NCBI RefSeq assembly: GCF_963921235.1
Contig: NC_086108.1
Span: 39,744,001 to 39,808,000, forward strand
Source: Mobula hypostoma
Taxonomy: Eukaryota
Length of the DNA: 64,000 nucleotides
Reading direction: 5' to 3'
Shown here in pieces: positions 12,646 through 51,694 of this stretch (positions within the stretch are counted from its first letter, which is position 1; the number at the start of each line of letters is the position of its first letter). The position numbers were made by a program, and so were the translations under genes. The notes beneath the pieces are model-generated. The model was not told the origin of the DNA. It saw nothing but the letters and a program-made list of their open reading frames with translations, and did not search any database.

Positions 12646-15600
12646 CACCATTATCCCTGCTAGTGTCCTCTTCCAATCAACTTTGGCTAAAGCCTCTCTC
12701 GTGCCTCTGCAGTTCCCTACACTCCACTGTAGTAGTGATACGTATGACTTTAGATTCTCCCTCTCAAATTGGAGGGTGATTTCTATCATATGATCACTGC
12801 CTCCTTAGGGTTCCTTTACCTTAAGATCCATAATCAAATCTGATTCATTACACAACACTTAATCCAGAATAGCTGATCTCTTTGTGGGCCTAACCACATG
12901 CTGCTCCACAAATTCATCTTGTAGACATTCTACAAATTCTTTCTCTTGGGAACCAAAATCTGCAGCAACCTGAATTCCCCAATCTACCTACATATTAAAA
13001 TTCCCCATGACATTGCCCTTATAGCATGCATTTTCTATATCCTGCTGATATTTGTAGGCCACATCCTGACTTCTGTTAGGAGATCTGTATCAGGGTCTTT
13101 TTACATTTGCAGTTTCTTAATTCTACCCATAAAGATGTACTTCTTCCAAACCTATGTTACCTCTTTTTAAGCATTTGAATTCACTGTTTTCTTTACCAAC
13201 TGGACCATTCACACCCTCTGCCTACCTGTCTGTCCTTTTGATACAGTGTCCATCCTTGAATGTTCCCAAATGTAATCTATCAGTCATGAGTCCATGATGC
13301 CCACAATGTCATACTTGCCAATCTCTAATTGCGTTACAAGATTGTCTCCTTATTCTGTTTACTGTGCATTCAAATATTACACCTTCACTTCTGTTTTTGT
13401 TACCTTTTTTGATTTTTGTCACCCTTTTCGATTTTTGTCCCCGTTGTACTGCAACTCATCCCACTGACTACAATTTTACTGTATCATCTGCCTGTCCTTC
13501 CTGACAGTCTCACTGCACACTGTCTCTGCTTGTATACCAACTGCTCCATTCTCTGCCCTATCACTCAGGTTCTCATCCATCTGCCAAATTAATTTAAATC
13601 TTCTCCAACAGTTCCAGCAAACCTGTCTGTTATTATATTAGTTCCCCTCGGGTTCAGGTGTAATCCGATCCTTTTGTACAGGTCATACCTTCCCCAGAAG
13701 AAATGCCAATAATCCAAAAATCTGAAGCTCTAAGCTCTGCACCCTGCACCGGTTCCTCAGCCATGCATTCAGCAGCCAAACCATTCTATTCTTACCCTCA
13801 CCTGCTCCACTCCTCCAACTGTGGATTCTGGTATAACAACTTCAGTCGTCTTCCCCACTTCCTTTCTGAGCCTCAATGCCAGAGACCTGGTTGCTGTGGT
13901 TTCCAGAGATTACTGCCCCGGAAGTCTAGCTTTTCAGCTTTCTACCTAACTCCTGAAATTCTGTCTTTAATACTTCCTCCCTTTACTTACCTATGTCATT
14001 GGTGCCAATATGTACGGAGACATCTGGCTGCTCACCCTCTCCCTGTAGAATGCCATGGACCCGATCTGAAGTGTCCCTGACCCTGGCGCCTGGGAGGACA
14101 CATACCATTCAGGTGTCTCTGTTGTGCCCACATAATCTCTTGTCCACTCCTCCAAACGTGGATTCTCCTATCACTACTTCAGTTGTCTTCCCCACTTCCT
14201 TTCTGAGTCGCAATGCCAGAGACCTGGTTGCCGTGTTTTCTTCCTGTTTTCCACTCTACCTCGCCCCCTCGTGGCATACTTAAATTCAGACAGGGCTCTA
14301 GTTCATTACAAGGAGGCCAGGAAGGCTCTTCAACCTAGACTTAAGAGAGTAGAAGGGGACAGGAGAAGGCCTTAACGAGTATGTTTAGGGAAAACTCCAA
14401 GGCATTCTACACATATGTGAGGAACAGGAGGATAACAAGAGTGAGGGTAGGACTGATCAGGGGTAAAAGAGGAAATATATGCCTGGAGTTGGAGAAGATA
14501 GGGAAGATCCTTAATGAATATTTCAGTATTCACCGGTGAGAGGGCCCTTGACAAATATGAGATAAGTATAGAGCAGGCTGATAAGCTGGAACGTGTCAGC
14601 ATTAAGAAAGAGGATGTACTGAATATAATGAAAAATATTAGGATACGTAAGTTCCCAGGGCAGGATGGGTTATATCCCAGGGTACTACGAGAAGCAAGAG
14701 AAGTGTTTGCTGCATCTTTAGCGATGGATTTTGTGTCCTCACTGACCACATGGGTAGTGCCAGAGGATTGGAGGGGGACAAACGTTATTCTTTTGTTCAA
14801 GAAATATAATAGGGATAACTCTGGGAATTATAGACGAGTGAGCCTTTTGTTAGTGGTGGACAACTTTTCGAGAGGGTTCCTAGGGACAGAACTTAATGAG
14901 TATTTGGAAAAGCATAGTCTGAATAGAGATAGCTGACAGGACTTTCTGAGAGACAGGCCGTGCCTCACAAGTCTTGATTGAATTCTTTGAGGAAATGTCA
15001 AACAAATTAATGAAGGCAGAGTAGAGGATGGGCTGTATATGGATATTAGAATGGCATTTCAGAAGGTTCCATTTGGTGGGTTCATTCAGAAAGTGAGGAA
15101 GTATAAGATCCAGGGAAACTTGACTTTGAGGATGCAGAATTTGCTTGACCATGGTAGATGGAGCATATTTTGCTTGGAGGGCAGTGACCAGTAGTTTTCC
15201 ACAGGGATCTGTTCTGGGGCTTGTGCTGTTTGTGATTTTTATAAATGACTTGAATGAAGAAGTGGAAGGATAGATTTTTAAGTTTGCACAAAAGATTGGT
15301 TGGGTTTTGTATAGTGTAGATTGTTGTCCTAGGTTACAATAGGACATTGATAGGATGCAGAGCTGGGCTGAGAAGTAGCAGATGTAGTTCAATCTGGAAA
15401 AGTATGACTTTGGGGGGAAGACTCTGGTTAGACTATACAGGTTTCCCCCGCCATCCGAAGGTAGAGCGTTCCTGTGAAACGGTTCGTAAGCTGAAATGTC
15501 ATAAAGCGTAGAAGCAATTACCATTTATTTATATGGGAAAATTTTGTGAGCGTTCGCAGACCCAAAAATAACCTACCAAATCATGCCAAATAACACATAA

Positions 15601-15860
15601 AACCTAAAATAACAGTAACATATAGTAAAAGCAGGAATGATATGATAAATACACAGCCTATATAAAGTAGAAATACTTCTCTACAACGATTGCCTGCACA
15701 GATCTCCGTAGCGAAAATCTCACGTAAGCGCTCTCGGCAGAAAATCTCATGCAAGCGCTGTTGGCATAAACGCGCTCTCCAGTAACCTTTAAACTATGAA
15801 GCTGCCAAATCTACCAAATAACACGTAAAAATACACAGCCTATATAAAGTAGAAATAATG

Positions 15861-16541
15861 TGTAAGGGGGTTTCGTCTTTTACTGCGTAGGCTAATTAAA
15901 ATGGCTTCTTTGTCATGTTATACTGGGGAATGCTTCTTTGTTATGTTAAATGCTGAGAAAGTCTCTAGCTAGACAGTTGCTTGGGTTAATACAGATAGCA
16001 GGGTGCTATTAACCAATTGAGATAGTTGTTATGATCTTGGTGTATCTGGGAGATTTGTATGTGCGGGGTTTTGGGGCAGAAGGCAGGAGAGCGAGTCAGA
16101 GGATGGTGCTGTGATGTCCGCTAACGGGGTCGGACCCCGAGGAGGGCGTTCGGCGAGGAGACAGAGACGGACTCATGTAGAGTGTCTGGTCGACCACCGT
16201 TGTGGGTCCCATGTGGCCGGTCGAGGTGGTCCGAGGGGTCGCAGGGTGAAGAAGAAGGTTCTTGAGCTCCAACTGTTTTGTGCACGAAGAGATTGAACTT
16301 TGCTAAGTGTGGTGCCTTTTATTTTCCTTTTATATTTTATTCTCTATTAATTATATAGTTCCAGTAATATCTATAAACTGTAAATCATTTAATGGTATCT
16401 GGTGTATTGTCTGTTATTTGGACGGGGTGGGATACATCACACAGCATCCACACAAACTAATTACCCAGTTTGGCGGAGGCGAGGGTTATTTCCCTAGACG
16501 ACAGCGAGCTGAGCGACCCTGAGGCTGACCGGGGGGCTACA
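15861..16541. mobile_element. Solo LTR (Gypsy-like), 681 bp
   Basis: TGTA...TACA termini; 4-bp TSD AATG at 15857-60 and 16542-45. The uninterrupted target (GAAATAATGTATGTACAG) is visible in the sister Tigger copy at about 32357-32374. No coding motif. Confidence 0.85.
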
Positions 16542-16689
16542 AATGAATGTACAGTGTAGTATCACTTACGGGAATTGGGACGACATCGAGCACACTGATG
16601 ATGGTGTGTTAGACTGACTTGTCGCAGGTTGGGATGGTGCAGTGGCCCCCACCCTCTGGGCCGCTGATTGATACATTGCCGCGAAGCAC

Positions 16690-16923
16690 GCAGGGGTAGC
16701 CGGGAGGCACACAGCACATCTTTAAGAAAAAAGCCGAAATAAACATGCTAATTAATTAGGTGCTGCCCAGCACGTAAATGTTGGCGCAGATCAGAGGCGA
16801 TTGCCGATTGCATCGGCACTGATCTGGGCCGACAATTACGTGCTAGGCGGCACCTAATTAATTAGCATGTTTATGTTGGCTTTTTTCTTAAAGATGTGCT
16901 GTGTGCCTCCCCGCTACCCCTGC
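16690..16923. repeat. Long imperfect palindrome (about 112-bp arms, about 10-nt loop)
   Basis: GCAGGGGTAGC...CTAATTAATTAGGTGC...GATCAGAGGCGAT pairs with ATCGGCACTGATC...GCACCTAATTAATTAG...GCTACCCCTGC. Confidence 0.93.
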
Positions 16924-17400
16924 ATTTTCCGCGAATCGGTACAGTATCTGTCTGGGGCCCGGGGGTTGGGGTGGTGGGACATGGGGGTGTTATCTCATCG
17001 TCGATCAGGGCAGGCAGCTCATCTTCTCCTATGACTGCCGACCTCGATGTTGAAGGTCGAGGTTCGTCGTCTGCTGTGGCTGATGTGGAAGGCTTGCTTG
17101 ACTGCTGAGCCTCACGCATTTTTATATCACACAGTTCTTTGTAAGGACTCAAAACATCCTGCAAATATCCCCTAAACCTACGTACCCTTTCAAAATTAAA
17201 GTGGTACTTTATCATTGCAGCGAAAGTCTCACGCAGTTGGTTCGCTTTCTGCATTCAGTTTCAATTATTATCCTTTCCTCTTCCAATTGCATCAGCTCTT
17301 CATCTATCAGTTCTTGGTCATGGGATGCCAAAACCTCTTCAACATCATCTTCGTCAGCTTCCACAAGCCAAACTCACTTCGTCCTTGCTTCGTTCACCAC
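16871..17400 (-). pseudogene. Tigger/TIGD-type transposase C-terminal remnant
   Basis: Minus-strand translations EADEDDVEEVLASHDQELIDEELMQLEEE and NFERVRRFRGYLQDVLSPYKEL match the acidic C-terminal region of Tigger transposases. No DDD domain retained. Confidence 0.75.
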
Positions 17401-17407
17401 GATCGAA

Positions 17408-17703
17408 ACAATAGACAATAGGTGCAGGAGTAGACCATTCGGCCCTTCGAGCCAGCACCGCCATTCACTGTGATCATGGCTGATCATCCACTATCAGTAT
17501 CCAGTTCCTGCCCTATCCCCATAACCTTTGATTCCGCTATCTTTAAGAGCTCTATCCATCTCTTTTTTGAAAGCATTCAGAGACTTGGCCTCCACAGCCT
17601 GCTGGGACAGAGCATTCCATATATCCACCACTCTGTGGGTGAAAAAGTTTTTCCTCAACTCCGTTCTAAATGGCCTACCCCTAATTCTTAAACTGTGGCC
17701 TCT
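17408..17703 (-). mobile_element. CR1 3'-end fragment nested in the Tigger element
   Basis: ORF 17494..17718 (-) GHSLRIRGRPFRTELRKNFFTHRVVDIWNAL; tail ACAATAGACAATAG. Confidence 0.88.
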
Positions 17704-19439
17704 TTTATGCCCCCTCATATAACACCCTTACGAGCTCTTTCAGGCTTTTCCGACACCTTAGAACTCATCTTGTAAACGGCTGCTCACAGGCTCGTGATTA
17801 AGCAATGCCATTCCGAATCCGGGGGAGAGCGGCTGCTCGGAGTGCGCGCTGCCTTTTATTGCGTGCTGCCTTTCTTCGTAACAGTGAAAACACCTTCTGA
17901 AAGGGAAAACAAGGTACTAATGTAGGTCTTTCATAACAGTGAGGTTTCGTAAAGCGAACGTTCGAAAAGCAGGGGACACCTGTACTTGGAATATTGTGCT
18001 CAGTTCTTGTTGCCTCATTGTAGTAGGATGGATGGTGAAACTTTAGAGAATATGCAGAGGATTTACCAAGAATGTTCCTGGATTAGAGAGCATGTCTTGG
18101 GATAGGTAGAATGAGTTGGAGGTTTTCTCTTTGGAGCGAAGGAGGGTGACAGGTAGCTTGATAGAAGGGTACAGGAAGCATGGATAAAGCAAGCTGGAGA
18201 CCTTTTCCCAGGGTGGAAATGTCTAATATGAGGGGGCATAATTTCAAGCTGTTTAGAGGAATGTACAGGAGGGATGTCAGGTTTTTACAGAGTGGTAGGT
18301 GCGTCAAACGTGCTGCCGAACGTTGTGGTAGAGGCAGCATTAAAGACACTTAAGAGGTTCTTTGATAGGCACATGGATGAAAGAGAAATAGAGGGCTATG
18401 TGGGAGGAAGGAGAGATCAATTTTAGAGGAGGTTAGAGTCAGCACAGTATCATGGGCCAGATGCACGTAAGAGTAATGTTCTATGTCGTTTATTCAACAT
18501 TGTTTACTTGCCAACTAAAAAGGATTGTTTCCTATTGTGTAACGTTTCTGTGATCATGATGCCCTTCATCTTGGATATAAGACTGGAATCTTAGCCAGTC
18601 AGTAGTCCACTTAGTCCAGTCAGCAGATTATGTGCTTCAACCTTCTATTTTAAGATGTGGTCACAAAGAACCAGATCATAGTTGCATGGAGGCATTTCTG
18701 CACTGTTGGGATGTACAGTAGATGAGATGGTGAACTAGGATCCATTTGCCCTTGCAGTGGTTTCAATAATCTTATTATGAAGCAGTAGATTTCAGCTAGT
18801 TGTGTTCAATGGTTGTTTCAACCAACAAGACTATAGTGTTTCTCTGAATAAATCAGCACCTTTCTTTTTCTTTCAATCTGTTTTTCTTTATGCTTGCAGT
18901 TTCATGTGATGAAAGGTCACAATTAAGGCCTTTTTTTTGTAGAAATGCAAACCCCCACCCCCATCGCATGAGTCAGGAGTCACACGCAGTAACATTTTTT
19001 TCTGTGAATTTTCACTGATGCTGCTGTGAAGGCAATACTCTATATAACTGCTGGGAGATTTCAGTTGCATGAATGAAACTGAGAATATATGCCAGTACAA
19101 TCCAAGGAAGCAAAGTTCTTTCAAGATTTGGAGTTTTCTGTTTACAAATAATCAATAATGAAGTGAGATACAAGTCATGTCATTAAAGATAAAGGTTTAA
19201 CAATAGATGGTTTACCTTTTAAGTGATAACTGTGGCCATTGCTACTTTAAGAGCAGCAATGTGTTCAGTGTTGAGTGTTGGTGAACATTCTTGCACTGTT
19301 ATAATTTTTTGGTTCTTTGGTTCACATTTCAATATGATCACTTTACTGATTGAAACATAAGTTGTGAATTCTTTTGCAGTATCAGACTTGTCTGCAATTA
19401 ATGATACTTAGCAACTATTTTTGCATCCTGCTTCCTGCA

Positions 19440-22596: not shown

Positions 22597-24324
22597 TAAT
22601 TGGTATTTGCCCTATAGTTATCTTTTGCACTCTGATTTATATGAATTAGGCCACTGTTCTAAATGGAAAATTGTTGGTTAATTTGAATTCTGATTCACGT
22701 TTATTTACATCAGTAAATGTTTTTGTGGACTTTTCAAATATCAGGTGAAAGCTGGATTAACAGTCTGTCCCATGCACATCATTGGATTGCTGAATCCATT
22801 ACTTACCCCCAAATATAACATGAAGATGTTACAAAAGGTGCACTAAAGTATAAACAAATATCTCATGGTAGGCGGTTTAACTGCTGCAAAGTAGTCATGA
22901 TGTTGCTATTACTGAGGCTGTGATAGGTTTGTGGAGGTTAGTTCAAGAATCGGATAGTTGAAGGGAACCCAATCTACATTTGTTCCTCCAGTACACAGGA
23001 GGCCTTTTATGATCAGTGAATGAGGTATGCTAGATTGGAAGAACTGTGAGTGATTTGCAGCTTCATCTGGAAGGGGGTTGGTGAGAAGAGGGGAGTTGAA
23101 TGTCTACCAGCTTTGGTCAAGGAAATTAACAATGAAGATGAAGTGCTGTATACATGCTGTAATTCTTTTGACTTATTGAGATAAAACTAAGATGTTTTAG
23201 TAATAAAAACTAATAGTGAGAGTTTTATTTTCATTTGTGCAATTAGACTTTGATGCACTAATTGTTTGGAATTATATGTTGTATCTTCAAAATAAGATGA
23301 ATTATCATCCAACTAAAACCTTTGGCAACATGATTGTAGCTAGGGTTTAAGAATGTCTGTTCCAGTACATGACAGATAAAACTGATTTCTTAGTTTCTGA
23401 GTTCTGCCAATTTAATTTTAGTTAGATTTTCAGGTTCAACAAAACATAATCAGCATCACACACAAAATACTGGAGGAATTCAGCCAGTCAGGCAGCATCA
23501 ATGAAGGGGAATAAACATTTGACATTTTGGGCTGAGGCCCTTCATCAGGACTGGAAAGGAAGTAGGCAGAAGCCAGAATAAGAAAGTTGGGGGTGGGGGG
23601 GGGGAGGAATGAATACTAGCTGCCAGCTGATAGATGAAATCAGGTGGGTGGGCGGGGGAAGGGGGGAATGAAGAAAGTAGCTGGGAGGTGATAGGTGGAG
23701 GAAGCAAAGGGCTGAAAAAGAGGGAATCTGATAGGAAATGACTGTGGAAGAAGGGGAAGGAGGCGGGACACCAGAGGGAGGTGATGGGCAGATGTAGAGA
23801 AGAGAAATGGGGTGATGGGAACCAGAATGGGGAATTGGAAAAAAGAGAAGGAAAAGGGAGAAATTATTGGAAGTTAGAGAAATCAATGTTCATGTAATCA
23901 GGTTGGAGGCTACAGAATTTGTAGCCTCATCATGGCAGTAGAGGAAGTCGTTAATCAACATCTCAGTCTGGGAATGGGAAGTCAAATTGAAATGGATGGT
24001 CACCAGGAAATCCCATCTTTTGTGGTGGATGGAGCGAAGGTGCGCGACAAAGTGGTCCCTCAATCCATAGTACGTTGGGTCTCCTCACCAGTGTCGAGCA
24101 GGCCACACTTCGAGTACTGGTTATAGAAGACCACCCCAACTAGACTCACAGGTGAGCTGTTGCCTCACTTGTGTTCCTCCAGCATTTTGTGTGTTTTGCT
24201 CAAGATTTCCAGCATCTGCAGAATCTAAACAACAGGAATTCTGCAGATGCTGGAAATTCAAGCAACATACATCAAAGTTGCTGGTGAACGCAGCAGGCCA
24301 AGCAGCATCTATAGGAAGAGGCGC

Positions 24325-24360
24325 AGTCGACGTTTCAGGCCGAGACCCTTCGTCAGGACT
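24325..24360 (-). ncRNA. Minimal type-I hammerhead ribozyme motif (intact core)
   Basis: Minus strand AGTC-CTGACGA-AGGGTCTCGGCCT-GAAAC-GTC-GACT: stem I AGTC/GACT, core CUGANGA and GAAA, stem II hairpin, palindromic ACGU in place of stem III, GUC cleavage triplet. Confidence 0.85.
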
Positions 24361-24654
24361 AACTGAAGGAAGAGTGAGTAAGGGATTTGAAAGCTGGAGG
24401 GGGAGGGAGAGATGCAAAATGATAGGAGAAGACAGGAGGGGGAGGGATAGAGCCGAGAGCTGGACAGGTGATAGGCAAAAGGGGATACGAGAGGATCATG
24501 GGACAGGAGGCCTAGGGAGAAAGACGGGGGGGGGGGTGACCCAGAGGATGGGCAAGAGGTATATTCAGAGGGACAGAGGGAGAAAAAGGAGAGTGAGAGA
24601 AAGAATGTGTGCATAAAAAGGAGTAACAGCTGGGGTACGAGGGGGAGGTGGGGC

Positions 24655-27377: not shown

Positions 27378-27446
27378 TGACAGAAAGTAACGTGTAGTGA
27401 ATTTTTCTGGAAAGGTTATGCTGAATAGAGTAAATTCAATTCAATA

Positions 27447-27776
27447 CAGTTGGCCCTCTGTATCCGCAGATTCAACCAACCGCGGATCGAAAATATCAAC
27501 CATGGATCGCGATTATTGCGTCTGTACTGAACATGTACAGACTTTTTTTTCCTTGTCATTATTCCCTAAACAATACAGTATAACATCTATTTACATAGCA
27601 TTTACATTGTATTAGGTATTATAAGTAATCTAGAGATGATTTAAAGTATACGGGAGGATGTGTGTAGGTTATATGCAAATACTACGCCATTTTAATAAGG
27701 GACTTGAACATCCGCGGATTTTGGTATCCGCGGGGAGTCCTGGAACCAGTCCACCGCGGATACCGAGGGACGACTG
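27447..27776 (+). mobile_element. Tigger-family MITE, Tigger3a/MER7A (Golem)-like, 330 bp
   Basis: TA flanks (27445-46, 27777-78); TIRs CAGTTGGCCCTCTGTATCCGC / GCGGATACCGAGGGACGACTG. Internal sequence matches my recollection of the MER7A consensus. Second copy at 32077-32948. Confidence 0.88.
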
Positions 27777-30328
27777 TAATTACAAATAAGAACTCATTTC
27801 CAATTGAGATAACTCTTCATCATTCTTTCTTCAAAATCAATTGCAATAATTCTGAATGATAAAGAGCTATCTCAATTGGAAATGTGTTTGTAAGGATTAT
27901 TGTTTTATTGTCTGAATCCAGATGCCATGTGAATTTCAGCAGATCATAATCTTAACAGAGACATGAGAAATGGTTCCTTAGATTTTTAGTTCACCCCTTG
28001 ACAAATTGAGTTTTTCTTACTTACCATTTCTAGGACTGTTAAGTAGCTAGGTGCTGAGATTTTACAATATGTCTCTTTCACTGATATTTTCGGTCGTGAA
28101 GCTTATTTGGCAAAGCTGGTTGATCATATAGCTACCTTTTTATTTATTGTCAAGGTATTAAATAAGTTAATGAATTGTGGATATAGAATAGATAAAAGTC
28201 ATCCATGATAGATAGTGAAGCTGTAAACAAAACAATATATTATGCTTAATACACCAAGGATATCTTTTGGGATAAAAAGCATTTGAGCACTAGAAAAGTT
28301 ATGCTTTAGACTTGTAAAATGAGTGACAGTATTGATTTATATATTCCTTTGGCATTGATTGCTGGTGTTTGTTCAGCTTCCTTCTGTTTGAATTTTGGAT
28401 TTAAAGATCAATAATAATATTGTTTCACTTTTGGAAATACTAAAATTTAACCTTTGCAGTGTTTGGAAAGGTGAATTGTGGATAACATTCAGACCTGAAT
28501 ATCTAATCGCTGTGGGGGATTTCTTGCTCTTGTGAGGTAATGTCATTCCTGACATGGGAGGTCACTTTGCTTGGCCCGTGAGACTTGAGACTGTGAAAAC
28601 AATCTCAGTTTCTGGGCCCTCCACCTTGGTGGTTGTAAGAGTTGATTCTGAGACTTCAGGAAGTGGTTCTGACAGCTCTGGACACCTTTCCTCTCCATTT
28701 CTTGGCTCTTCACTTTCCTTTTTCTTCTAGTTTGTGCACCTTGATCCTGGGAAGGTCCATTTAGTTCAAGGGAGTATTCTCTTATTAATCCTTCTATTTC
28801 TCCCTTTATAATCTGATACCCTCTCGGTTTCCTCATCCACAACATCATCTGATAGATCCTCTGTTTTCATATCTTTATTGACCCCTTTCTTTTCGGTCTT
28901 CCATTCACTTTGCAGGCTTTTGTATCAACCTTTACAAGCAGCTTTTATTCTCCCACTTGAAGTTCATACAATAACATTAATGTACACAGATTAGATTCTG
29001 GTTCTTTATACGCAGAAAAGCCATATGCTTGCGACTTTCCTGTAGCTCCTTGAACTCTCTTCCAATTTAAAACCAAGCCATGGTTCACAAGTAACTGCCT
29101 GGTTAGCATATCAGAAGCTTTTTCAGATATGTTGCCTACAAAAACTGTTGGAGTCGGACCAGTATTTTCTTCACTTACTCACTTCCTCTGAGCAGCATGG
29201 TCTTTCCTTGGTCCAATATGCTTTCCAATCTGAGGCACAGAGACTGGGATCAACACCTGCTTGCTCTCTGTTACGCAATGGTTCTTGGTTTTCAGTATGG
29301 AAGTGGTTGTGGCAAAATCCAGTACTTTTCTTAATTTGATTTCAGTTGTCTCAATTTCAGGGGATGTGGCATATAAGTTATGGATGGATCTCCTTTCAAG
29401 TTGTAGTTGTCTGTCACTCACGACCTCAGAACGCCAGCTCTCCTGTATTACCACATGCAAGCCCAATGTGGCTTGTTGGTTGTGGTATTTCACTGTCATG
29501 AATGTCATTCCCACAGGAATGATCTTTTCTCCAGTATAAGTTCTTAGTTGGATATCTGGAGGCTTCAGTTTAGTATCTTTGAAATGCTGTTCAAACTAAT
29601 TTTGTGAAATAATTGAAACAGCTGAGTCAGTGTTGAATTCCATTTTAATTAATTTGCCATTCACTTCTGTTGTAAGCCATTTTGCTTGTCTACTATTAGT
29701 TTTCACATTGTAAAATCTCAAGGCTATTCAGTCCTGTGTCACTCATCATTATCAGATTTTTCATTAATAGCATGCAGATTAGTGCTCTTTTTGAAACTAC
29801 AACTTGACTTTTATCTTTTTCTCTTCCATGTGCAGTCCGTTTACTTTTGTCTACCCAACATGCTCTTTTGCATGTGTCTTAATTTGTTGCATTTTCGGCA
29901 AGTTTCACCTTTAAACCTGCATTGGTCTAGTGTTTGTGACCCTCTGCCACAATGGTAACACAATTTGTTCGGCCAGGCCAGTTTCTTTTTAGAGATTGCA
30001 ATTTTGTTCATACTCACTTTCATTCTTGACTGGAACTCAATGGTATCTCCCACCACTGTTTCTATTGGTGCAGCTATTGTAGCTGCTCCTTTAAAAGTAC
30101 GTTGTGCTTCAGTTAGGAGCTGTTTTTGTATACTTTTTTTTGTATACTTTTTTTTTGTAAGATTCCACAAGCTAAACAATTTCTCAATGCATAATTAAGC
30201 CCATTACCGAACTGACGATGCTCAGACCTCTTCAATTCAGTCAGGTATGCTGAAAAGGACTTCCCTTCCTTTCGATTCCGTGTATGAAACCTAAAGCATT
30301 CTGCAATCAACAATGGTTTCAGTTCTAA

Positions 30329-31819
30329 ATGTTCCTGCAATACTTCCACAATATCAGCAGAACTTATAACTATATCCCTTCCCCACATGAAACCACCATG
30401 GTGGGCTTCACAGCTGAACAGTTGAGAAGACAGCTGAAACGTCTCAACCCAAGCAAGGCTGCAGGACCGGATGGTGTCAGTACCAGGGTACTCAAAGCCT
30501 GTGCCCCTCAGCTATGTGGAGTACTTCGCCATGTATTCAACCTGAGCCTGAGGCTCCGGAGGGTTCCTGTGCTGTGGAAGACGTTCTGCCTTGTCCCTGT
30601 GCCGAAGACGCCGCGCCCCAGCAGCCTCAATGACTACAGACCGGTGGCATTGACCTCCCACATCATGAAGACCGTGGAGAGACTTGTTCTGGAGCTGCTC
30701 GGGCCTGTGGTCAGGCCACACTTAGATCCCCTCCAGTTCACCTACCAGCCCCGACTAGGAGTTGAGGATGCCATCGTCTACCTGCTGAACCATGTCTACG
30801 TCCACTTGGACAAGCCAGCGAGCACTGTGAGGGTCATGATTTTTGACTTCTCCAGTGTGTTCAACACCATCCGCCCTGCTGTGCTGGGGGAGAAGCTGAC
30901 AGCGATGCAGGTGGATGCTTCCCTGTTGTCACGGATTCTTGATTACCTGACTGGCAGACCACGGTATGTGTGCTTGCAACACTGTGTGTCCGACAGAGTG
31001 ATCAGCAGCACTAGGGCTCCACAGGGGACTGTCTTGTCTCCCTTTCTCTTCACCATTTACACCTCGGACTTCAACTACTGCACAGAGTCTTGTCATCTTC
31101 AGAAGTTTTCTGATGACTCTGCCATAGTTGGATGCATCAGCAAGGGAGATGAGGCTGAGTACAGGGCTACGGTAGGAAGCTTTGTCACATGGTGTGAGCA
31201 AAATTATCTGCAGCTTAATGTGAAAAAGACTAAGGAGCTGGTGGTAGACCCGAGGAGAGCTAAGGTACTCGTGACCCCTGTTTCCATCCAGGGGGTCATT
31301 GTGGACATGGTGGAGGTTTTCAAATACCTGGGGATACGAATTGACAATAAACTGGACTGGTCAAAGAACACTGAAGCTGTCGACAAGAAGGGTCCGAGCC
31401 GTCTCTATTTCCTGAGGAGACTGAGGTCCTTTAACATCTGCTGGACAATGCTGAGGATGTTCTACGAGTCTGTGGTGGCCAGTGCTATCATGTTTGCTGT
31501 TGTGTGCTGGGGCAGCAGGCTGAGGGTGGCAGACACCAACAGAATCAAGAAACTCATTCGTAAGGCCAGTGATGTTGTGGGGATGGAACTGGACTCTCTG
31601 ACGGTGGTGTCTGAAAAGAGGATGCTGTCCAAGTTGCATGCCATCTTGGACAATGTCTCCCATCCACTACATAATGTACTGATTGGGCACAGGAGTACAT
31701 TCAGCCAGAGACTCATTCCACCGAGATGCAGCACAGAGCGTCATAGGAAGTCATTCTTGCCTGTGGCCACCAAACTTTACAACTCCTCCCTTGGAGGGTC
31801 AGCCACCCTGAGCCAATAG
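30329..31819 (+). CDS. Open 496-aa reverse transcriptase ORF of Rex1/Babar copy B (no endonuclease domain; ATG from flank)
   Basis: Uninterrupted frame with KAAGPDGV, NDYRPVALTSHIMK, DFSSVFNTI, PQGTVLSPFLF, KFSDDSAI, FKYLGI and C-terminal domain. The first ~12 codons lie in antisense Gypsy sequence. Expression not shown. Confidence 0.75.
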   Translation: MFLQYFHNISRTYNYIPSPHETTMVGFTAEQLRRQLKRLNPSKAAGPDGVSTRVLKACAPQLCGVLRHVFNLSLRLRRVPVLWKTFCLVPVPKTPRPSSLNDYRPVALTSHIMKTVERLVLELLGPVVRPHLDPLQFTYQPRLGVEDAIVYLLNHVYVHLDKPASTVRVMIFDFSSVFNTIRPAVLGEKLTAMQVDASLLSRILDYLTGRPRYVCLQHCVSDRVISSTRAPQGTVLSPFLFTIYTSDFNYCTESCHLQKFSDDSAIVGCISKGDEAEYRATVGSFVTWCEQNYLQLNVKKTKELVVDPRRAKVLVTPVSIQGVIVDMVEVFKYLGIRIDNKLDWSKNTEAVDKKGPSRLYFLRRLRSFNICWTMLRMFYESVVASAIMFAVVCWGSRLRVADTNRIKKLIRKASDVVGMELDSLTVVSEKRMLSKLHAILDNVSHPLHNVLIGHRSTFSQRLIPPRCSTERHRKSFLPVATKLYNSSLGGSATLSQ

Positions 31820-31974
31820 GCTGGTCCTGGACTTATTTCCTGGCATAATTTACATACTACTATTTAACTATTTATGGTTTTATTACTACTTATTATTTAT
31901 GGTGCAACTGTGACAAAAACCAATTTCCCCCGGGATCAATAAAATATGACTATGACTACTATGACTATGACTAT
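30365..31974 (+). mobile_element. Rex1/Babar LINE, copy B (5'-truncated, young)
   Basis: Near-identical to 1-1710; continuous RT frame; AATAAA followed by (ATGACT)n tail at 31945-31974. Gypsy gag is colinear across it. Confidence 0.95.
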
Positions 31975-32076
31975 TTCTGCTGGTTTGGTTGGAGCAGTAA
32001 ATCTTCAAATCAAACCCAATGCACTCAGCAAAATTGATATTTCTTTCTCTTGGGCTATTCCACTTGCTTCAAAATA

Positions 32077-32948
32077 CGGTAGGCCCTCCGTATCTGCGGG
32101 TTTTGCATCTGCAGATTCAACCAACCACGGATCGAAAATACTGTACACAGGTTTCCCCCGCTATCCAAAAGTAGAGCAGAAATGGCGTAAAGCGAAGAAG
32201 CAATTACCATTAATTTATATGGGAAAAATTTTTGAGCGTTCCCAGACTCAAAAAATAACCTACCAAATCATACCAAATAACACATAAAACCTAAAGTAAC
32301 ACTAACATATAGTAAAAGCAGGAATTATATGATAAATACACAGCCTATATAAAGTAGAAATAATGTATGTACAGTACAGTGTAGTTTCACTTACTAGAAT
32401 CGGGAAGACAGCGAGCACACTGGAAGGTTCATGCATTTTACTATCATACAGTTCTTTGTAAGCACTCAAAACATCCTGCAAACCTGCCCTAAACCTACGT
32501 GCCCTTTCAAAATTAAAGTCATACTTTTCTGCAATAATTGCAGCACTGTCAATCATAGCAAAAATCTCATGCAGTTCAAAGCTATGGCTTGCGCGCTGCC
32601 TCTATAACGGCTTGCTGCAAAAGAAACGCTGAACGCTATTTTCGCTGAGGCAGCATCAGCATTCCCAGAAGAGCTACGATGGTTGCGTCTCTACTGAGCA
32701 TGTACAAACTTTTTTTTCTTGTCATTATTCCCTAAAAAATACAGTATAACAACTATTTACATAGCATTTACATTGTATTAGGTATTACTGTATAAGTAAT
32801 CTAGAGATGATTTAAAGTATATGGGAGGATGTGTGTAGGTTATAAACAAATACTACACCATTTTATATAAGGGACTTGAGCATCTGCAAATTTTGGTATC
32901 CCTGAGGGCTCCCGGAACTAATCCCCCGTGGATACGGAGGGCCGACTG
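32077..32948 (+). mobile_element. Second Tigger3/MER7-like element, interrupted by a MER82-like fragment
   Basis: TA flanks (32075-76, 32949-50); TIRs CGGTAGGCCCTCCGTATC / GATACGGAGGGCCGACTG; body matches 27447-27776. Confidence 0.88.
32148..32646 (-). mobile_element. Tigger (MER82-like) deletion fragment with one TIR
   Basis: Starts CAGGTTTCCCCCGCTATCC, same family as 15438-17982; ORF 32302..32556 (-) NFERARRFRAGLQDVLSAYKELYD. Second TIR not seen. Confidence 0.85.
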
Positions 32949-35011
32949 TACTGTTCAATTAACTCTGTACATGAGCCAGTTATCTGTTGAGGAATTGAAC
33001 ACAACTATTTTTTCCATGCAGCCAGCTATTTCTGATTTAAAAAAAATGATTATTATCACCTGGTCCTCACTGTTTATGAACACATGAATTCATCCGTTTA
33101 GAGGTGGATGGAAGCTGGAAGTTACTGATGAATATTTGAAGATGCATGGAACTGGAGGCAGTGAAAGATCTGCTCAGTGTAGTAGTGAAGAAATTGGAAA
33201 GAAATGCTGAACGAGTGAAGTTTGAAATAAAACTTGATGTTTTTGTTACCATGGCGCATTACTTAGCAGACAATCTGTTAAATAGGTAGGGAGCTATTAA
33301 AGTAAAGGGTAATAGCAATGAAAACATCAACTTTGATTTCAAACTTCACACTAACGAGGAAGATGAGGAACTAAGTCTGAAATTTAATCAATTCCAAGGA
33401 TGAATGTGGGTATGAAAAGAGAAAACTATCTGATCGTTTGAGTAGAAAGGTGTAGGATCATATAACACCATCAAGATTACATTGAATAACAATGCAAAGC
33501 ATGAATGATCTGAAAAGTCAGTGTCACAGTAGCTTGGGAATTATATGTTGATAATTTGTCATTATTACAGACAATGCTGCTTATGTCTTTGCTTTCAGAA
33601 GGAAAGGCAACAGCCCTGCCCTGTTACGAGCCATTTAAAAGGGAAGAATAAATTTAAAGATGGTCTTCAGGATTGCAGTGGGAATAAAATGATCTGTTAA
33701 ACATGAAGTCAAACATAAGTGAAGTATGGAGGTGGACGAACAAAAATTCTGGATACATAATTTTAAATGTAAGCATAAGTAAACTTTCAACTTTCACTAC
33801 CCTTATTTTAGTGTCCAAATGAGGATTTTGGTAGCACCTCCAGCATTGTTCCTTTTAGTTTCAACTCTCAGTTACAGCTCTCATCTGCACCTCCTCTGCA
33901 AATAATCCTTTCAGAACTATTGTTTCTGTATTGTATTTCTCCTCAACTTTCCTCACTAATCTATTAATCAGACAGCTTTGTAATTGGAGATTTCCTTCTG
34001 TAACCTTGTCCACAGTCTATTGGTGATAATCTTTTTGTCTAAGCCATCCTCCTTCCACTCTCTTTATAACTTTAAATTCTCTTCCCATAAAAGCTGTCTG
34101 ACCAGTTGAGTTCTTCCATTATTATTTTTCATTTCAGATTTACAGTTTTTTAAACTTTTATTTATAGATGAAGCATGAATAGCAGGGTAGTGTGGTGATC
34201 CAGGAATGAGGTGAAGTGAGTAAGTGAGGCACGGTGTGGGAATTGATGGAAGAAAAGCCAATTAAGTCAAACCAGTGAAGTCTCTTTTCATCTTTTAAGC
34301 ATGTTCTGGTGAATAATCTGGAATTGAGTTCATTGTTGAATTTTATGTCTATTGAGCTACTTGTTTTATTAGAAAGCGGTCTGACTTTTTTTTTGCATTG
34401 TAGAAACAAACAAACATCCACATTTTTAAAAAAATCTTGTGTGAGAGAACCGTGGCATAATTTGCAGAAACATCCTTGCAGTTATACAGTTATTGGCTAA
34501 AATCCTAAATTAAAACTTGTATTCTGCAGATTTTGAGAAGCAGTAGTTTTGGCATGTAATAATCTACCACATTGGACTTGCATCATATATTACAATTCTC
34601 CTTTAATTGCTTATAAAATGAGGAATTTAAATTGTGGGAAACTGCAAATGCAGCACTTGATTCTACTATCAGAGTTTATATAATATTGATAGGACTTGGC
34701 AGTGGACCCCCATTGGCCAAGTAGAAATTGGTCACCTGTGGATGATGTCAGCATACATTCATAGGCCGGCCATGTGCAAATTTACAGTTAAGTCAAAGTG
34801 GATTTGAAAGGGTTTTGAAGGATGCTTAGCTATAGTAGAGTTGTTTAACTCTTGGAAAGATTCTAGGTAAATGGAATTATAACTGATGTGTTTTTAGATG
34901 GAAGAACAGGTTTGTTAGGATGATAACATGAATGTTAATCAGATATTTTTTGTGATGAACCCACTCATATTCTGTTCTTGTAAAATGCCAGTTATTTAAC
35001 CCACAACTCAG

Positions 35012-39700: not shown

Positions 39701-42276
39701 GATATTATCTGTGTCCTTCGAGTTTATCTTTGTAGAACTTACAAAGTCCATGGATATGTAATTAAAGCTTACCATGTGCTCCAGTACATCAGTTGATTGC
39801 ATAAGTTTGTGTGTGCAAATGATCTTTTCTATCTTACACTTGATATTATCTTTATTCTGTTGCTATAACTCCATAGGTGAGTTGATTTGGGCAACAAGTC
39901 ATTGGTCATTAAGGAATTGTTTGATATTCATCCATTATTAAGCAAAGTTGTTCTGATGGGAAAAATTCTGGGTTTATCAGCATTTTAAAAGGTTGAATGA
40001 GTTGTACTCCAAGAATAATCTTGAACATGAACATTTTTAAGGCTTTGAGGATGGATACATATCTGATGAAGTCAATGTTTCTTTTGATATTTGGGTTTAT
40101 AAATCTTGTAGAAAGCCAAGCAATGGGATTTGGAACAAGATGGATAATTTAACTTTAAAGACACATTAACTCTCTAGCATTTCCTTCAGTTTGCAAACAA
40201 TTTTTAAAAGTTCAGTAATAATTTCCTTGGTTCCTTTCTTGTATGTTTGATCAGTTATTTCCTGTGATGGTCATAAATTGCCTTGACTATAATGGTGACT
40301 ATGTCTATTAATGGTAGTTTATTTGGAGATGGTCAGGCATATAACTGAGTAGCCCAACTTTTCTTGCTGTAGATTTGGTTTCAACAGACGCAAGCTGCAA
40401 AAATGACTTAGTTAATTCTGTATTTTTCAATGTAGAATATGTTTCATAAATTTAGAACCCTAATCCATTTCACTTAAAATACTGGAAACCCACATGATAT
40501 CACACAATTTTAAACTGTGAATTAATTTGGCTATTAATTAAATATTTACGATAATAGGATCAATTGGGTAGGGATTTTTACACAAAATAATTGAATTTGA
40601 AGCAGAATGTTATTAAAAAATTTGGTACCGTTGTGTGATTCATAAAGTCTCCACTTTGAACATGACACTTGTTTGATTTTAATCCTTTTGCTCTATCATG
40701 CACAATTATAGAAAATAGCTTAATGATTATTGTCTTTTATACATTCAGCATCTGCATTATCACTTAGGTATGTTTGTGGTCTGTGACCACAACTAACTAC
40801 AACAAGATTCTAATTCTAACTGCTTTAAATGAATGCTTTTCTCAAAATATTTGTAATAGTTCTATATTGCCTTAAATCCGAAGTTATCTTTTATGCTTTC
40901 TTTTTCTGTATAAGGTTTTTCTGGAAAAACATATAATATGATGAGCAAAGAACTGTAACACAGGTCACCTGTAAAACTAAATGCTTCAACTGCTTTGTCA
41001 CCAAAGACAATGGTGGAAGATGTGTTACATAGTGGCCTAAAGCAACAACAAAACCAAGTAAATTTTAAGAGACCACTTTTTGTGTAGTTTCATGTAGATT
41101 GATTTTATTAAATGGAAAGTTTAAAAAAAAGTCAAACTGAATTTGTTTTATACTGCAACTTAATATTTTTATTGCAATCATAGAAATAAAAAACGTCTGA
41201 AATGACACAGTGAGATTAAGATTAGTGATTCATACAATTTAATTATAGATGTAATTTAGTTAAAGTGTATTATAGATCCTTCATTTGATTGTTTCACCAT
41301 TTCTTAGGACATTGAGGGGTTGGCATAATAATACCATAAGACACTGGAACAGACCATTTGGCCCACTGAGTCTGCTCTGCCATTTGATCATGGCTGATCC
41401 ATTTCCCTGTCAATCCAGTTCTCCTGCTTTCTCCCCGTAGCTCCTCATGCTCGACTATTTAAGAACCTATCAATCTCCACTTTAAATACACTCATTGACC
41501 TGGCTTCCACAGCAACCTGTGGCAGTGAGCTCCAAACATTTACCGTCTGGCTATAAAAAATTTCTCCTCATCTCCATTCTAAATGGTTGTCCCCTCTATC
41601 TTGGGGTTCCTCTCATCCTAGACTCTCCCACTATAGGAAACAGCCTCTCCACATCCATTCTATCTAGGCCTTTCAGTATTCAATAGGTTTCATTGAGATC
41701 CCCATCCATTTTTTCTAAATTCCAGCAAGTATAGACATAGAACCATTAAATGCATTTCAATCCCAGAATAATTTTCGTTAGCCGCCTTTGAGCCCGCTCC
41801 AATGTAAGCACGATGTTAGCACATGCTTTTTTAGGTAAGAGGCCCCAAACTGCTCACAATACTCCAAATGAGGCCTCACCAGTGAATTTTAAAGCCTCAG
41901 CATTACATCCTTGCTTTATTTTTTTCCTAGTCTTCTCAAAATGAATGCTAACATTACATTTGCCTCCCTCACCACTGACTCAACCTGCAAGTTAACCTTT
42001 AGAGAATCCTGCACAAGGACTCCGAAGTCCCTTTGCACCTCGGATTTTTGAATATTCTCCCTGTTTAGAAAAAATTCTATGCTTTTATTCCTTCCACCAA
42101 AATGTATGACTGTACACTTTCCAACACCATATTCCATCTGCCTTTGTTCAATCTTGCAATCTAAGTCCTTCTGCAGCTTTCTTGTTTCCTCAACACTTCC
42201 TGACCCTCCACCTATCTTTGTATCATCCACAAACTTGGCCACAGCCGTGAATTCCATCGTCTAAATCAATGACATA

Positions 42277-42802
42277 CGTGGGGTGATTGCTAAGTTTGTG
42301 GCCTAAGGTAGAAGGAGTCAATTTTAGAAAACCTAGCATATTTATTTTTCAACATAGTCCCCTCCTACATTTACACACTTAGTTCAGCGGTCGTGGAGCA
42401 TACGGATCCCTTCTTTGTAAAAGTCGGTGTCTTGGACCTCCAGAAAGTGGTCCATAGCAGGGGTGATTGATAAATTCGTGGCCTAAGGTAGAAGGACATG
42501 AGTTATACAGCTCTCGTTACACGCACATGCAGTTCAACTCTTTTTGAGTGATTATGCAGGAAGTTTGAAATTAATAACTCATCTCCTTCCACCTTCGGCC
42601 ATGAACTTATCAATCACCCCGCTGTGGACCACTTTCTGGAGGTCCAAGACATCGACTTCTACAAAGAAGGGATCCGTATGCTCCACGACCACTGGACTAA
42701 GTGTGTAAATGTAGGAGTGGACTATGTTGAAAAATAAATGTGCTAGGTTTTCTAAAATTGACTCTTTGTACCTTAGGCCACAAACTTATCATTCACCCCT
42801 TG
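42277..42802. mobile_element. Fold-back mariner-derived MITE (526 bp, about 230-bp inverted arms)
   Basis: TA flanks (42275-76, 42803-04); arms 42277-42506 and 42574-42802; 42621-42737 translates to the mariner transposase C-terminus AVDHFLEVQDIDFYKEGIRMLHDHWTKCVNVGVDYVEK*. Confidence 0.93.
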
Positions 42803-44315
42803 TACAATGTAAAAAGAAGCAATCCCAGCACCAAGCCCTGTGGAACTCCACTAGTCACCACCAGCAGCCAATCAGAAAAGGCTAACTTTATTCCTAACTT
42901 TTTGCCTCCTGCCAAACAGGCAATGCTCTTGCCATGCTATTATCTTTCCTGTAATACCATGGGCTCTTATCTTACTAAGCAGCCTTTTGTGTGACACCTT
43001 GTCAAAAGCATTTTGAAAATCCGAGTACATGACATCCACCAATTCTCCTTTGTCAATTCTGCTTGTTATTTCCTCAAAGAATTCTAATAGGTTTGTCACG
43101 CATGATTTTCGCTTGAAGAAAGCATGCTGACTTTGGCCCATTTTATCTTTTGTTGCCAAGTACCCTGAAACCTCTTCCTTAACAATTGACTCCAGCGAAC
43201 TTCTAACCACTGAGGTCAGGCCTATAATTTCCTTTCTTCTGCCTCTCTCCTTTCTTGAACAGAGGAGTGACATTTGCAATTTTCCAGAAATCTAGAACCA
43301 TGCCAGAATCCAGAAGATCATTACTAATGCCTCCACAGTCTCTTCAGATACCTCTTTCAGAACCCAGGGGTGTAGTCCATCTGGTCCAGGTAACTTAGCC
43401 ACCTTCAGACCTTTCAGTTTCTTAAGTGCCTTCTTCCTCGTAATAGCAATTGCACTCACTTCTGTGTTCCGACACTCTCGAACTTCTAGTATACTGCTGT
43501 GTGTTCCACAGTGAAGCCTGATGCAAAATACTTATTCAGTTTGTCTGCCATTTCCTTGTCCTGCATTACTACCTACCAAGCGCCATTTTCCAGTGGTCTG
43601 ATATCTATTCTTGCATGTTTTTACTCTATATATCTGAAAAAGCTCTTGATATCCTCTTTGATATTATTGGCTAGCTAACCTTCATACTTCATCTTTTCCA
43701 TCCTTATGGCTTCCTTAGTTGCCTTCTGTTGGTTTTTAAAAGCTTCCCAATCCTCTAACTTCCCACTATTTTTGCTCTATTATGTTTTCTCTTTTGCTTT
43801 TATGTTGGCTCTGACTTCCCTTGTCAGCTACAGTTGTGTCATCCTGTCGTTAGAATACCACTTCAGGATTTATTTATCCTGTGCCTTTCAAATTGCTCCC
43901 AGAAACTCCAGCTATTGTTGCTCTGATGTCAGCCTTGCTAGTGTTGCCTCCCAGTCAAATTTGGCCAGCTTATCTCTTATGCCTCTGTAATTCCCTTTAC
44001 TCCACTGTAATGCATTCCACTGTAATACTGATGCATGTGATTTTTAGCTCCTCCCTCTCAAATTGCAAGGTGAATTCTATCATGTTAAGGATTCCTTTAC
44101 TATAAGCTCCCTCATCAAATCTGATTCATTACACAACACAAATCTGGAGTAGCTGATCCCCTAGTAGACTCAACCACAAACTGCTCTTAACAACCTCATT
44201 TCATAGATATTCTATAAATTCTCTCTCCTGGGAACCAAAAGCAGCAGCAACCTGATTTTCCCAATCTAGCTGCATATTGTGATCCCCATGACTATCGTAA
44301 CATTGCTCTTTTGAC

Positions 44316-44489
44316 GCAAACAACAGGAATTCTGCAGATGCTGGAAATTCAAGCAACATACATCAAAGTTGCTGGTGAACGCAGCAGGCCAAGCAGCATC
44401 TATAGGAAGAGGCGCAGTCGACGTTTCAGGCCGAGACCCTTCGTCAGGACTAACTGAAGGAAGTCCTGACGAAGGGTCTCGGCCTGAAA
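44316..44489 (-). mobile_element. Young 174-bp PLE mini-insertion: tail + intact hammerhead + inverted partial hammerhead
   Basis: 10-bp TSD CTCTTTTGAC (44306-15, 44490-99); 44318-44463 identical to 24227-24372; inverted AGTCCTGACGAAGGGTCTCGGCCTGAAAC at 44462-44490. Confidence 0.93.
44416..44451 (-). ncRNA. Minimal type-I hammerhead ribozyme motif (intact core)
   Basis: Identical to 24325-24360: AGTC-CTGACGA-stem II-GAAAC-GTC-GACT on minus strand. Confidence 0.85.
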
Positions 44490-49449: not shown

Positions 49450-50636
49450 ACATTCATAAATAATGATGCTGTGACTATGTTTGTGTTCCTGGCCAGTTTG
49501 TAATTCTCTTTCAGAAAAGGTTGTATTAATTCTGATGTTTTTGGTTGGCCTATATCTCATAATGTGATGTCTGTTCATGTAAGAAGAAACAAAATAGCAC
49601 TTAATTTTAATAGGCTGGTTCTTGTTGAATCTTGCTGCACCTGATTATTTGACCTGTGGCTTTTGAATAGTTTCTGAATGCTTTTTGCTTTCAGCAACAC
49701 AAACTACTGTACTGAATTTAATGTAAATAATTAACTACATTTAAAGATTAATTAAAACATTTAAAAATCATTGAAGATGGAGTAAACAATTTTATTTCCT
49801 TTTCCCTATTACAACAATCATCTCACCGGCTCTTCAAGGCTTTGCCGCTCTCAGAACGATTCCCCACAAAATTTGCCATATCTCTTCTATTTTCCTGTAA
49901 CCTATTTTCTTTCACATAACCATTAATGCCACTCCGATTCTCCTACCATCTATGTCCACTCGGACTGAGTACCTAATTAATTTCTTCACTTTTACCCTTT
50001 TAGTCGGAGATTCCCTGATTTTGTTAATGGTTTGTGAATGTCCGGAACATTTAATCCCCATCCCTAATTCCTCAGTGGATGCATGTGCCTATTGAATATG
50101 CTCTTCTAGATTCCTTCCCCCCCCTCCCCCCCCCTATTATATATACTATATATTCTGAGTTCTGAATCCCTTTTGTATGTTGTGGAGTGCTGTTGTCACA
50201 ATGCATTTGATTCAGGTAAATGTCATTCTGTCATTACCCCTCTGCAAAACAATAAGCAAGCACACCCCACACATATGATTGCAAGAAAAAAGTTTGTGAA
50301 CCCTTTACAATTGCCTGGTTTTCTGCATTAATTTTCATAAAATGTGATCTGATCTTCATCTACGTCACAATAATAGACAAACACAATCTGCCTAAACTAA
50401 TAACACACAACAATTGTACCACTTCTCGTCAATACCGAGTTCACCATTTAAACAATCACAGTCTTGGTTCAAAAAAGTATGGGAACCTCTGGGCTAATGC
50501 CTTCTACAAAAGCTATTTGGAATCAGGTGTTTCATTCAATAAGTTGAGATTAGGGGTGTGGGTTGTTGAGGTGCTCTGCCCTATAAAATGGACAGCACAA
50601 AGTTAGGTTACTAAGAAAGATCTGTTTATGTGCACC

Positions 50637-51619
50637 ATGCCTTGATCAAATCAACTTTCAGAGGACCTTAGAAGGAGAATTATAGAGATGCATGAAGCTG
50701 GAAAAGGCTATAAATGCACTTCTGAAGACCTGAGTGGTAATCAGTCCATAGTAAGAGAAATTGTATACAAATGGAAGAAATTCAGTACTGTTGCTTCTCT
50801 CATTAGGAGAGGGCATCCTGCAAAGATTACACCAAGAGCACAACATGCAATGCTGAAAGAGGTGAAAAAGAACCCAAGGGTAATAGCAAAAGACCTGCAG
50901 AAATCTCTAGAACTTGCTAAAATCTCTGTTCTTGTGCCCACTATAAGTAAACACTGAACAAGAATAGTGTTCATGGAAGGATCCGCAGAGGAAACTATTG
51001 CTCTCCAAAATAAAAAAAAACATTGCTGCACATTTCAGGTTTGCAAAAGTCCACCTGAATGTTCCACAATACTTCTGGGACAATGTTCTGTGGCCACAAT
51101 GGACAAATATTGAACTCTTTGGCGGAAATGCACACTGCTGGATTTGGAGGGGAAAAGGGCACTGTACACCAAAACCTCATCCCAACTGGGAAGCATGGTG
51201 GAAGGAGCATCATGGGTTGGGGCTGCTTTGCTTTCTCAGGGCCTGAACAGCTTGCAATCGTTGAGGGAACAATGAATTCAAAATTGTATCAAGACATTTT
51301 ACAGGAGAATGTCAGGGTAGCGGTCTGTCACCTGAAGCTTAATAGAAGTTGGATGATGCAACAAGACAAGGATCTGAAACACAAAAGTAAATCTTGGAGT
51401 AGCCAAGTCAGAGTCTAGCTTTAACCCAATTGAGATGCTGTGGCATGACCTGAAGAGGGCTGTTCATGCAAGGTGTCCCAAAAATATTGATGAACTTAAA
51501 CTGTTTGCCATGGAGGAATGGTCTAAATTCCTACTCGCCATTATGTAAGTCTGATTAGCAGCTACAGGAAATGATTGGTGGAGGTTATTGTTGCTTACGG
51601 AGGTTCTACCAGTTATTAA
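50637..51619 (+). pseudogene. Tc1 transposase pseudogene
   Basis: MP*SNQLSEDLRRRIIEMHEAGKGYK, GHPAKIT (GRPR-like), FWDNVLW, KHGGRSIMGWGCF, MQQDKD.KH, NPIEMLW; stops, frameshifts and a deletion in the DDE region. Confidence 0.9.
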
Positions 51620-51694
51620 ATACAAGGGTTCACATACTTTTTCTAGCCTGGGCTGTGAGTGATTAAGCAATGTGTTCAATAAAGGCACGAAAAG

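Follow-up and report, generated by a model that had tools for sequence, protein, structure and literature searches.

Tigger transposons end in TIRs of about 20 bp (8 to 33 bp), most of which start with CAG, and transfers of these elements between animal classes have been reported (PMC9219625). Three human families, GOLEM (Tigger3), GOLEM_A (Tigger3a), and MER2, are placed by Repbase under Mariner/Tc1, as listed in an extract of PMC5753468. Human Tigger3 is given as primate specific and 54 to 67 My old in a passage of PMC5441408 that quotes Pace and Feschotte (2007), rather than as eutherian-wide, the distribution assumed in an earlier note on this DNA. Several transfers or patchy distributions offer points of comparison. 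Mariner-1_Tbel and Mariner1_BT are described in excerpts of PMC3517439 as mammal-insect transfers of cut-and-paste elements, with consensus identities above 95% and ages of ~100 to 69 My. MER6/MER6A is a mammalian TA-flanked MITE with a patchy distribution (primates, bats, and eulipotyphlans), parts of which come from non-mammals (a turtle element and a bony-fish SINE) (PMC6887750). Tigger transfers between Eutheria and Chondrichthyes have already been claimed by Diaby et al. (2022), in the relevant parts of PMC9219625.

We analysed a 64,000-nucleotide stretch of the genome of the ray Mobula hypostoma (hereafter, the window), which holds two related elements of unequal length, copy A (330 bp) and the longer copy B (Table 1). 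Like Tigger3a (GOLEM_A), MER2, and Tigger3 (Golem), copy A is a short, non-coding, TA-flanked Tigger derivative, and we take human Tigger3a/MER2 to have the same asymmetric ends and AT-rich interior and a length class of ~340 bp. It differs from these families in its host, a ray instead of a primate, and in a 15-bp loss with filler at the junction, while copy B differs in carrying a nested ray Tigger. The 5' and 3' parts retained by the two ray copies are almost the same. Copy A is a real Tigger MITE in native ray DNA. We further consider it probable, given a presumed likeness to the mammalian families, that it belongs to the Tigger3 (Golem)/MER2 lineage and that this lineage entered both rays and early primates horizontally.

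Structure of copy A

Copy A (27447-27776) is directly flanked by TA on both sides and bounded by imperfect TIRs of 22 bp, which match at 20 of 24 positions when the TA is included. Stops occur in all six frames, and no transposase is encoded. A MITE is recognized by its short length, TIRs, target-site duplication, and lack of coding capacity, and copy A shows all of these, its flanking TA being taken as the duplicated target, in agreement with the 330-bp TA-flanked MITE that the earlier note had claimed; the AT-rich stretch quoted there is also present in the element. MITE families further tend to many copies of one length, and the 64 kb of the window hold 2 related elements, which differ in length. 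The window contains 25 TA-bounded inverted pairs (at most 5 mismatches in 24), of which copies A and B are two. Such pairs are therefore unremarkable in themselves, and the case depends on three features taken together: the type of ends, the presence of a second copy, and the family signature.

Seventeen CpGs were counted in copy A, with an o/e ratio of 1.20 against 0.27 for the whole window. Among 1,158 sliding windows of 330 nt, only 2 reached an o/e of at least 1.19, namely copy A itself and a window in another Tigger at 15456. The single strand of copy A folds better than expected (z = -4.06), with none of 100 shuffles equally good. There were no Rfam matches within the window, which gives no ground for reading the locus as an RNA gene.

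Near the left end, 15 bp present in copy B between two short direct repeats are missing from copy A. Bases 27497-27509 duplicate 27477-27489 (11 of 13 bases) and are likely to be repair filler at the junction. Towards the right end, the 10-bp TIR core occurs once more without mismatch at 27723-27732, where it is likely a transposase site. This core is present three times in each of copies A and B, making up 6 of its 10 matches in the whole window, a recurrence expected for transposase binding sites.

Table 1. Positions, strands, and supporting comparisons of the Tigger-related features of the window
Feature	Positions	Strand	Basis
Left TA, target-site duplication of copy A	27445..27446	.	Flank sequence
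Left TIR of copy A (5' end of the parent element)	27447..27468	+	20/24 to right end including TA; 3' motif absent
5' subterminal part of copy A and deletion junction	27469..27509	+	Alignment to copy B
AT-rich non-coding interior of copy A (3' region of the parent)	27510..27694	+	137/143 identical to copy B over 27552-27694
3' subterminal region of copy A: extra TIR core, hairpin, Tigger 3' motif	27695..27754	+	Fold, motif searches
Right TIR of copy A (3' end)	27755..27776	+	21/24 to 5' end of Tigger in L015
Right TA of copy A	27777..27778	.	Flank sequence
Left end of copy B with TIR and subterminal repeats	32077..32147	+	Alignment, TIR comparison
Nested piece of second ray Tigger family in copy B	32148..32577	-	TIR match, protein matches
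About 100 bp of mixed origin in copy B	32578..32676	.	Weak; pieces picked after inspection
Right part of copy B common with copy A (3' interior, subterminal, TIR)	32677..32948	+	Alignment
Third element: longer, interrupted, TA-flanked derivative of second Tigger family	15438..17982	-	TIR, block, and protein comparison

Tigger-type ends and search for the parent element

Metagenome contigs were scanned with an alignment of 38 Tigger proteins. Tigger relatives were encoded in 256 of the 571 matched stretches, and 80 loci were kept (L001 to L080). TA-bounded TIR pairs were found in 15 of these loci. Twelve were used; in the other 3, which were left out, the pair fitted poorly or had the transposase match outside it. 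A four-base motif situated 33 to 36 bases from the end was found at 11 of the 12 Tigger 3' ends and at none of the 12 5' ends. The same motif is present at the right ends of both ray copies (33 to 36 bases inside the end in copy A) and absent from both left ends, showing that these ends are of Tigger type and that the parent is read on the plus strand. The start CAG is found at three of the four ends of copies A and B, while the left end of B starts with CGG. Both copies thus present TA on both sides, short TIRs, and the 3' motif, the last being an empirical criterion derived from this analysis. The triplet GTT, 33 to 35 bases inside the 3' end, was present in all 12 complete Tiggers and in none at the 5' end, and its position provides a simple means to orient Tigger MITEs.

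Of the 24 terminal positions at the right end of copy A, including TA, 21 agree with the 5' end of the Tigger in locus L015, a match that is weak alone (blastn E value of 0.075). The matching end of L015 is bordered by TA and precedes a Tigger transposase ORF by 244 bp. Together with the 3' motif, it supports the assignment to Tigger made in the earlier note. The best match of the L015 transposase is a TIGD1-like protein of Aphis craccivora (94%), and no ray or primate protein is found among the named entries of the best 120 of its 357 matches. This aphid-type element was rejected as the parent of copy A, since the likeness is limited to the TIR, with no match beyond it. The interior of copy A matched none of the 80 metagenome Tigger loci, the best hit being this 24-base end match.

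A tblastn search of the whole window with 218 proteins, nearly all of Tigger type, gave no match to copy A at an E value of 1e-3. A permissive search on copy A alone returned two weak matches (27% over 48 aa and 37% over 30 aa), which were taken as noise. An autonomous Tigger would encode a transposase with a CENP-B-type HTH and a DD29-36D domain; the lack of a transposase match is expected for a MITE, and copy A was classed as non-autonomous. Its TIR occurs in none of the vertebrate rows in parts 5 and 6 of Table S1 of PMC9219625, suggesting that, as far as these rows go, Tiggers of vertebrates do not share it as a generic end.

A second, composite insertion

Copy B (32077-32948) is also flanked by TA (32075-32076 and 32949-32950). 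It shares with copy A a left part of ~50 bp (91.9% over 37 columns) and a right part of ~270 bp (87.6% over 275 columns). The 1-kb flanks of the two copies have no sequence in common, which indicates two independent insertions and rules out a segmental duplication as their origin. Over 268 aligned bases the copies differ by 17 transitions (7 at CpG) and 10 transversions, giving a K2P distance of 0.109 (0.081 without CpG transitions). The AT-rich interior is identical at 137 of 143 bases and the CpG-rich last 84 bases at 68.

The ~530 bp between the A-like parts of copy B come mostly (~430 bp) from a second Tigger family. The nested piece starts with a 3' TIR at 32148 (4 mismatches in 26 to 15436-15461), contains blocks 88 to 96% identical to 15434-17210, and encodes on the minus strand a transposase C terminus (32383-32577) with 73 to 77% identity to the Mobula proteins P0001 and P0002. 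It is identified by the third element of Table 1 (15438-17982), which is not a copy of A. The second copy announced by the earlier note therefore stands as a related, TA-flanked element, but it is composite, and the view that it arose from the same parent by a smaller deletion is rejected for 32148-32577. Five of 244 candidate proteins matched the C terminus of the second family, and all 4 named ones belong to Mobula hypostoma or Hypanus sabinus. A ray Tigger nested in copy B shows that the family of copy A has resided in a ray germline and makes contamination very unlikely, a stronger argument against contamination than that of the earlier note.

The remaining ~100 bp of the middle part are of mixed origin. 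Their left part resembles the 5' leader of the nested Tigger family, with a DNA match that was reached in 4 of 300 shuffles. Positions 32641-32679 (plus strand) can be read as 13 residues resembling the HTH-DDE linker of several Tigger transposases (10 of 14 with P0144), adjoin the shared 3' part of B, and might be left over from the transposase of the parent. When 32578-32679 was read as plus-strand transposase, the score was 55, and the best of 30 shuffles gave 46; the peptides were picked after inspection, and the first has a minus-strand rival.

Proposed origin of the MITE and its probable horizontal transfer

Family chemistry suggests that an internal deletion of a parent Tigger would have left ~55 bp of its 5' end and 270 bp of its 3' end. 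As judged from the biology of pogo and Tigger elements, a Tigger transposase acting in trans would bind the TIRs and subterminal repeats and excise the piece (PMC9219625, PMC7386202), which would insert at a TA with duplication of this TA, the copies afterwards decaying neutrally. Copy A would have lost the 15 bp between the two short repeats at its left end, with duplicated filler left at the junction, while copy B would later have acquired part of another Tigger or been assembled around it. The lineage would have reached rays and early primates horizontally, probably via a third host, which we find more plausible than direct contact between rays and primates.

The interior and right end of copy A are presumed, as in the earlier note, to be nearly identical to the human consensus of MER2/Tigger3a (MER7A being presumably a synonym of Tigger3a). 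An identity of ~95% in non-coding DNA could not have survived some 390 My of independent evolution on the mammalian branch and would argue for transfer. Given the primate-specific distribution and age quoted in PMC5441408 for Tigger3, a near-identical element in a ray, if real, would also need horizontal transfer. According to parts of PMC7070016, DNA transposons evolve neutrally within vertebrate genomes and Tc1/Mariner elements are those most often transferred; the same parts describe transfers involving mammals or birds as rare, with 24 events detected in the largest vertebrate screen considered. Lizard MITEs with ends similar to those of marsupial Tigger3, described in an extract of PMC3014272, fit a patchy, mobile lineage.

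The proposed transfer is of the same kind and period as those of Mariner-1_Tbel and Mariner1_BT, which differ in being Mariner and not Tigger elements, in involving insects and not cartilaginous fish, and, in the excerpts of PMC3517439, in being shown by alignment, whereas here the mammalian likeness is presumed. MER6/MER6A also differs, as its non-mammal matches are partial and 17 to 39% diverged, in a screen of 85 tetrapod genomes that had no cartilaginous fish (PMC6887750). The four eutherian-chondrichthyan pairs of Diaby et al. (mongoose with two sharks) have distances of 0.65 to 0.70 and other TIRs in the relevant parts of PMC9219625 and are not of the family of copy A. Searches of the open-licence literature gave no description of Tigger3/MER2 elements from rays or sharks; Repbase and Dfam may already list such a family. 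The main text of PMC7070016 has no shark, chondrichthyan, or Tigger term, and no shark or Tigger term was found in the text of PMC10162687.

A wider scenario is put forward tentatively, since we lean slightly against it: rays (Myliobatiform) would carry a near-ancestral Tigger3/MER2 MITE with the same breakpoints, a single wave of transfer in the Late Cretaceous to Paleocene would have brought it to early primates (54 to 67 My ago) as well as to marine rays and a lineage of arthropods, and the slow ray genome would keep the best source copy of a human repeat that has since become a regulatory element in prostate cancer.

The alternative that survives best, although we regard it as unlikely, is a ray-specific Tigger MITE that resembles Tigger3a at the family level only, in its ends and AT-rich 3' region, its near-identity having been overstated, with no link between ray and primate. 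TIR likeness is cheap, as shown by the aphid-type Tigger of L015 with its 21 of 24 terminal bases and no interior match, and the lizard MITEs are likewise a case of Tigger3-like ends for which the extract of PMC3014272 reports no whole-element match. A presumed consensus may be coloured by the very sequence with which it is compared, and this one window already contains a second Tigger family. However, the presumed match extends beyond the ends across the AT-rich interior, and the TIR of copy A is missing from the vertebrate rows of Table S1 mentioned above.

Vertical descent from the jawed-vertebrate ancestor, with a slow ray clock, selection on the ends, and a late revival in primates, appears improbable. 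Its slow clock is in line with the mutation rate of 7e-10 per base per generation given for a shark in an extract of PMC10587355. Old fossils have turned other patchy TE patterns into vertical ones, and five pre-amniote TcMar-Tigger fossils are known in human, according to a portion of PMC9004415; the label "primate-specific" also proved too narrow for MER6A (PMC6887750). Against this, the two ray copies are already separated by the K2P distance given above, and the tetrapod side was not slowed. Rays and tetrapods split ~390 My ago, which at 1 to 2.2e-9 per year would correspond to 0.4 to 0.9 substitutions per site. The upper rate is that quoted in PMC6887750.

The last alternative concerns the assembly itself. 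Human or mammalian contamination, which comes into question solely through the presumed mammalian likeness, is highly improbable, because the nested piece of B is 88 to 96% identical to a ray element of the same window and its encoded protein has its nearest models in Mobula and Hypanus, the TA lies precisely at the ends of both copies, a repeat in the 1-kb left flank of A has several further copies in the window, and copy A has a CpG o/e of 1.2, whereas human copies 54 to 67 My old should have lost most of their CpGs.

Horizontal transfer of a Tigger3/MER2-type element remains our preferred reading. If real, a ray family near-identical to Tigger3a/MER2 would provide a clear example linking fish and mammals and would help to date and trace the source of DNA transposons that flooded early primate genomes. 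As this kind of event is already known, the gain would be a new case and not a new mechanism. The case would also concern a repeat for which a regulatory function has been described: Tigger3a is named 101 times in PMC10618745, a paper whose relevant portions deal with TEs co-opted in prostate cancer.

Age of the ray copies

The shark mutation rate is among the lowest measured in vertebrates, according to the same extract of PMC10587355. In such a slowly mutating lineage, the many intact CpGs pointed out in the earlier note, although confirmed by the counts above, are weak evidence of youth and no sign of a recent burst. The divergence of 4 to 5% per ray copy may represent tens of millions of years or more; the slow shark rate is compatible with a burst of the same age as that in primates but does not establish it. 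The pedigree rate would give 58 to 78 million generations, an estimate that was discarded because such a rate is no credible long-term clock.

The second ray Tigger family and other repeats

The transposase of the second family (P0005 as the query, 78 matches; proteins P0005 to P0014) has as relatives 4 proteins of Trichuris suis, a parasitic nematode, with 59 to 67% identity, and others in ENA/Logan contigs with 73 to 77%, and the named matches from non-ray vertebrates lie below both, at 44% or less. A parasite-linked transfer of this family is possible as judged from these protein identities. Among viral contigs, no relative was confirmed for P0005 (1 pattern match) or for alignment A1 (81 matches).

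The second family is also fused into ray gene models (proteins P0002, P0003, and P0004). In a Mobula model of 1,626 aa (cluster of 29), its whole transposase stands in front of GTF2I, reminiscent of the mammalian GTF2IRD2 transposase fusion, and in Hypanus its C terminus lies inside an LSM12 gene model. The GTF2I fusion may be an annotation artefact. The element at 15438 itself contains a TG...CA piece of ~680 bp with an AATG duplication (15862-16540), which is solo-LTR-like, and a near-perfect palindrome at 16680-16933 (arms of 122 nt, 89%, 10 nt apart), which is probably another MITE.

Elsewhere in the window, two 146-nt copies 20 kb apart (24227-24372 and 44318-44463) are 100% identical, unlike most repeat pairs of the window, and may represent a very recent copy, gene conversion, or an assembly effect. 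Two LINE copies (114-1709 and 30363-31970) share 94% over 1,608 bp, the second retaining a reverse-transcriptase frame of 496 aa (30329-31819). Inverted repeats were found at 42275-42804 (188 nt, 93%) and at 50335-52272 (76 nt, 95%), the latter enclosing transposase fragments at 50646-51418 that we take to be Tc1-like.
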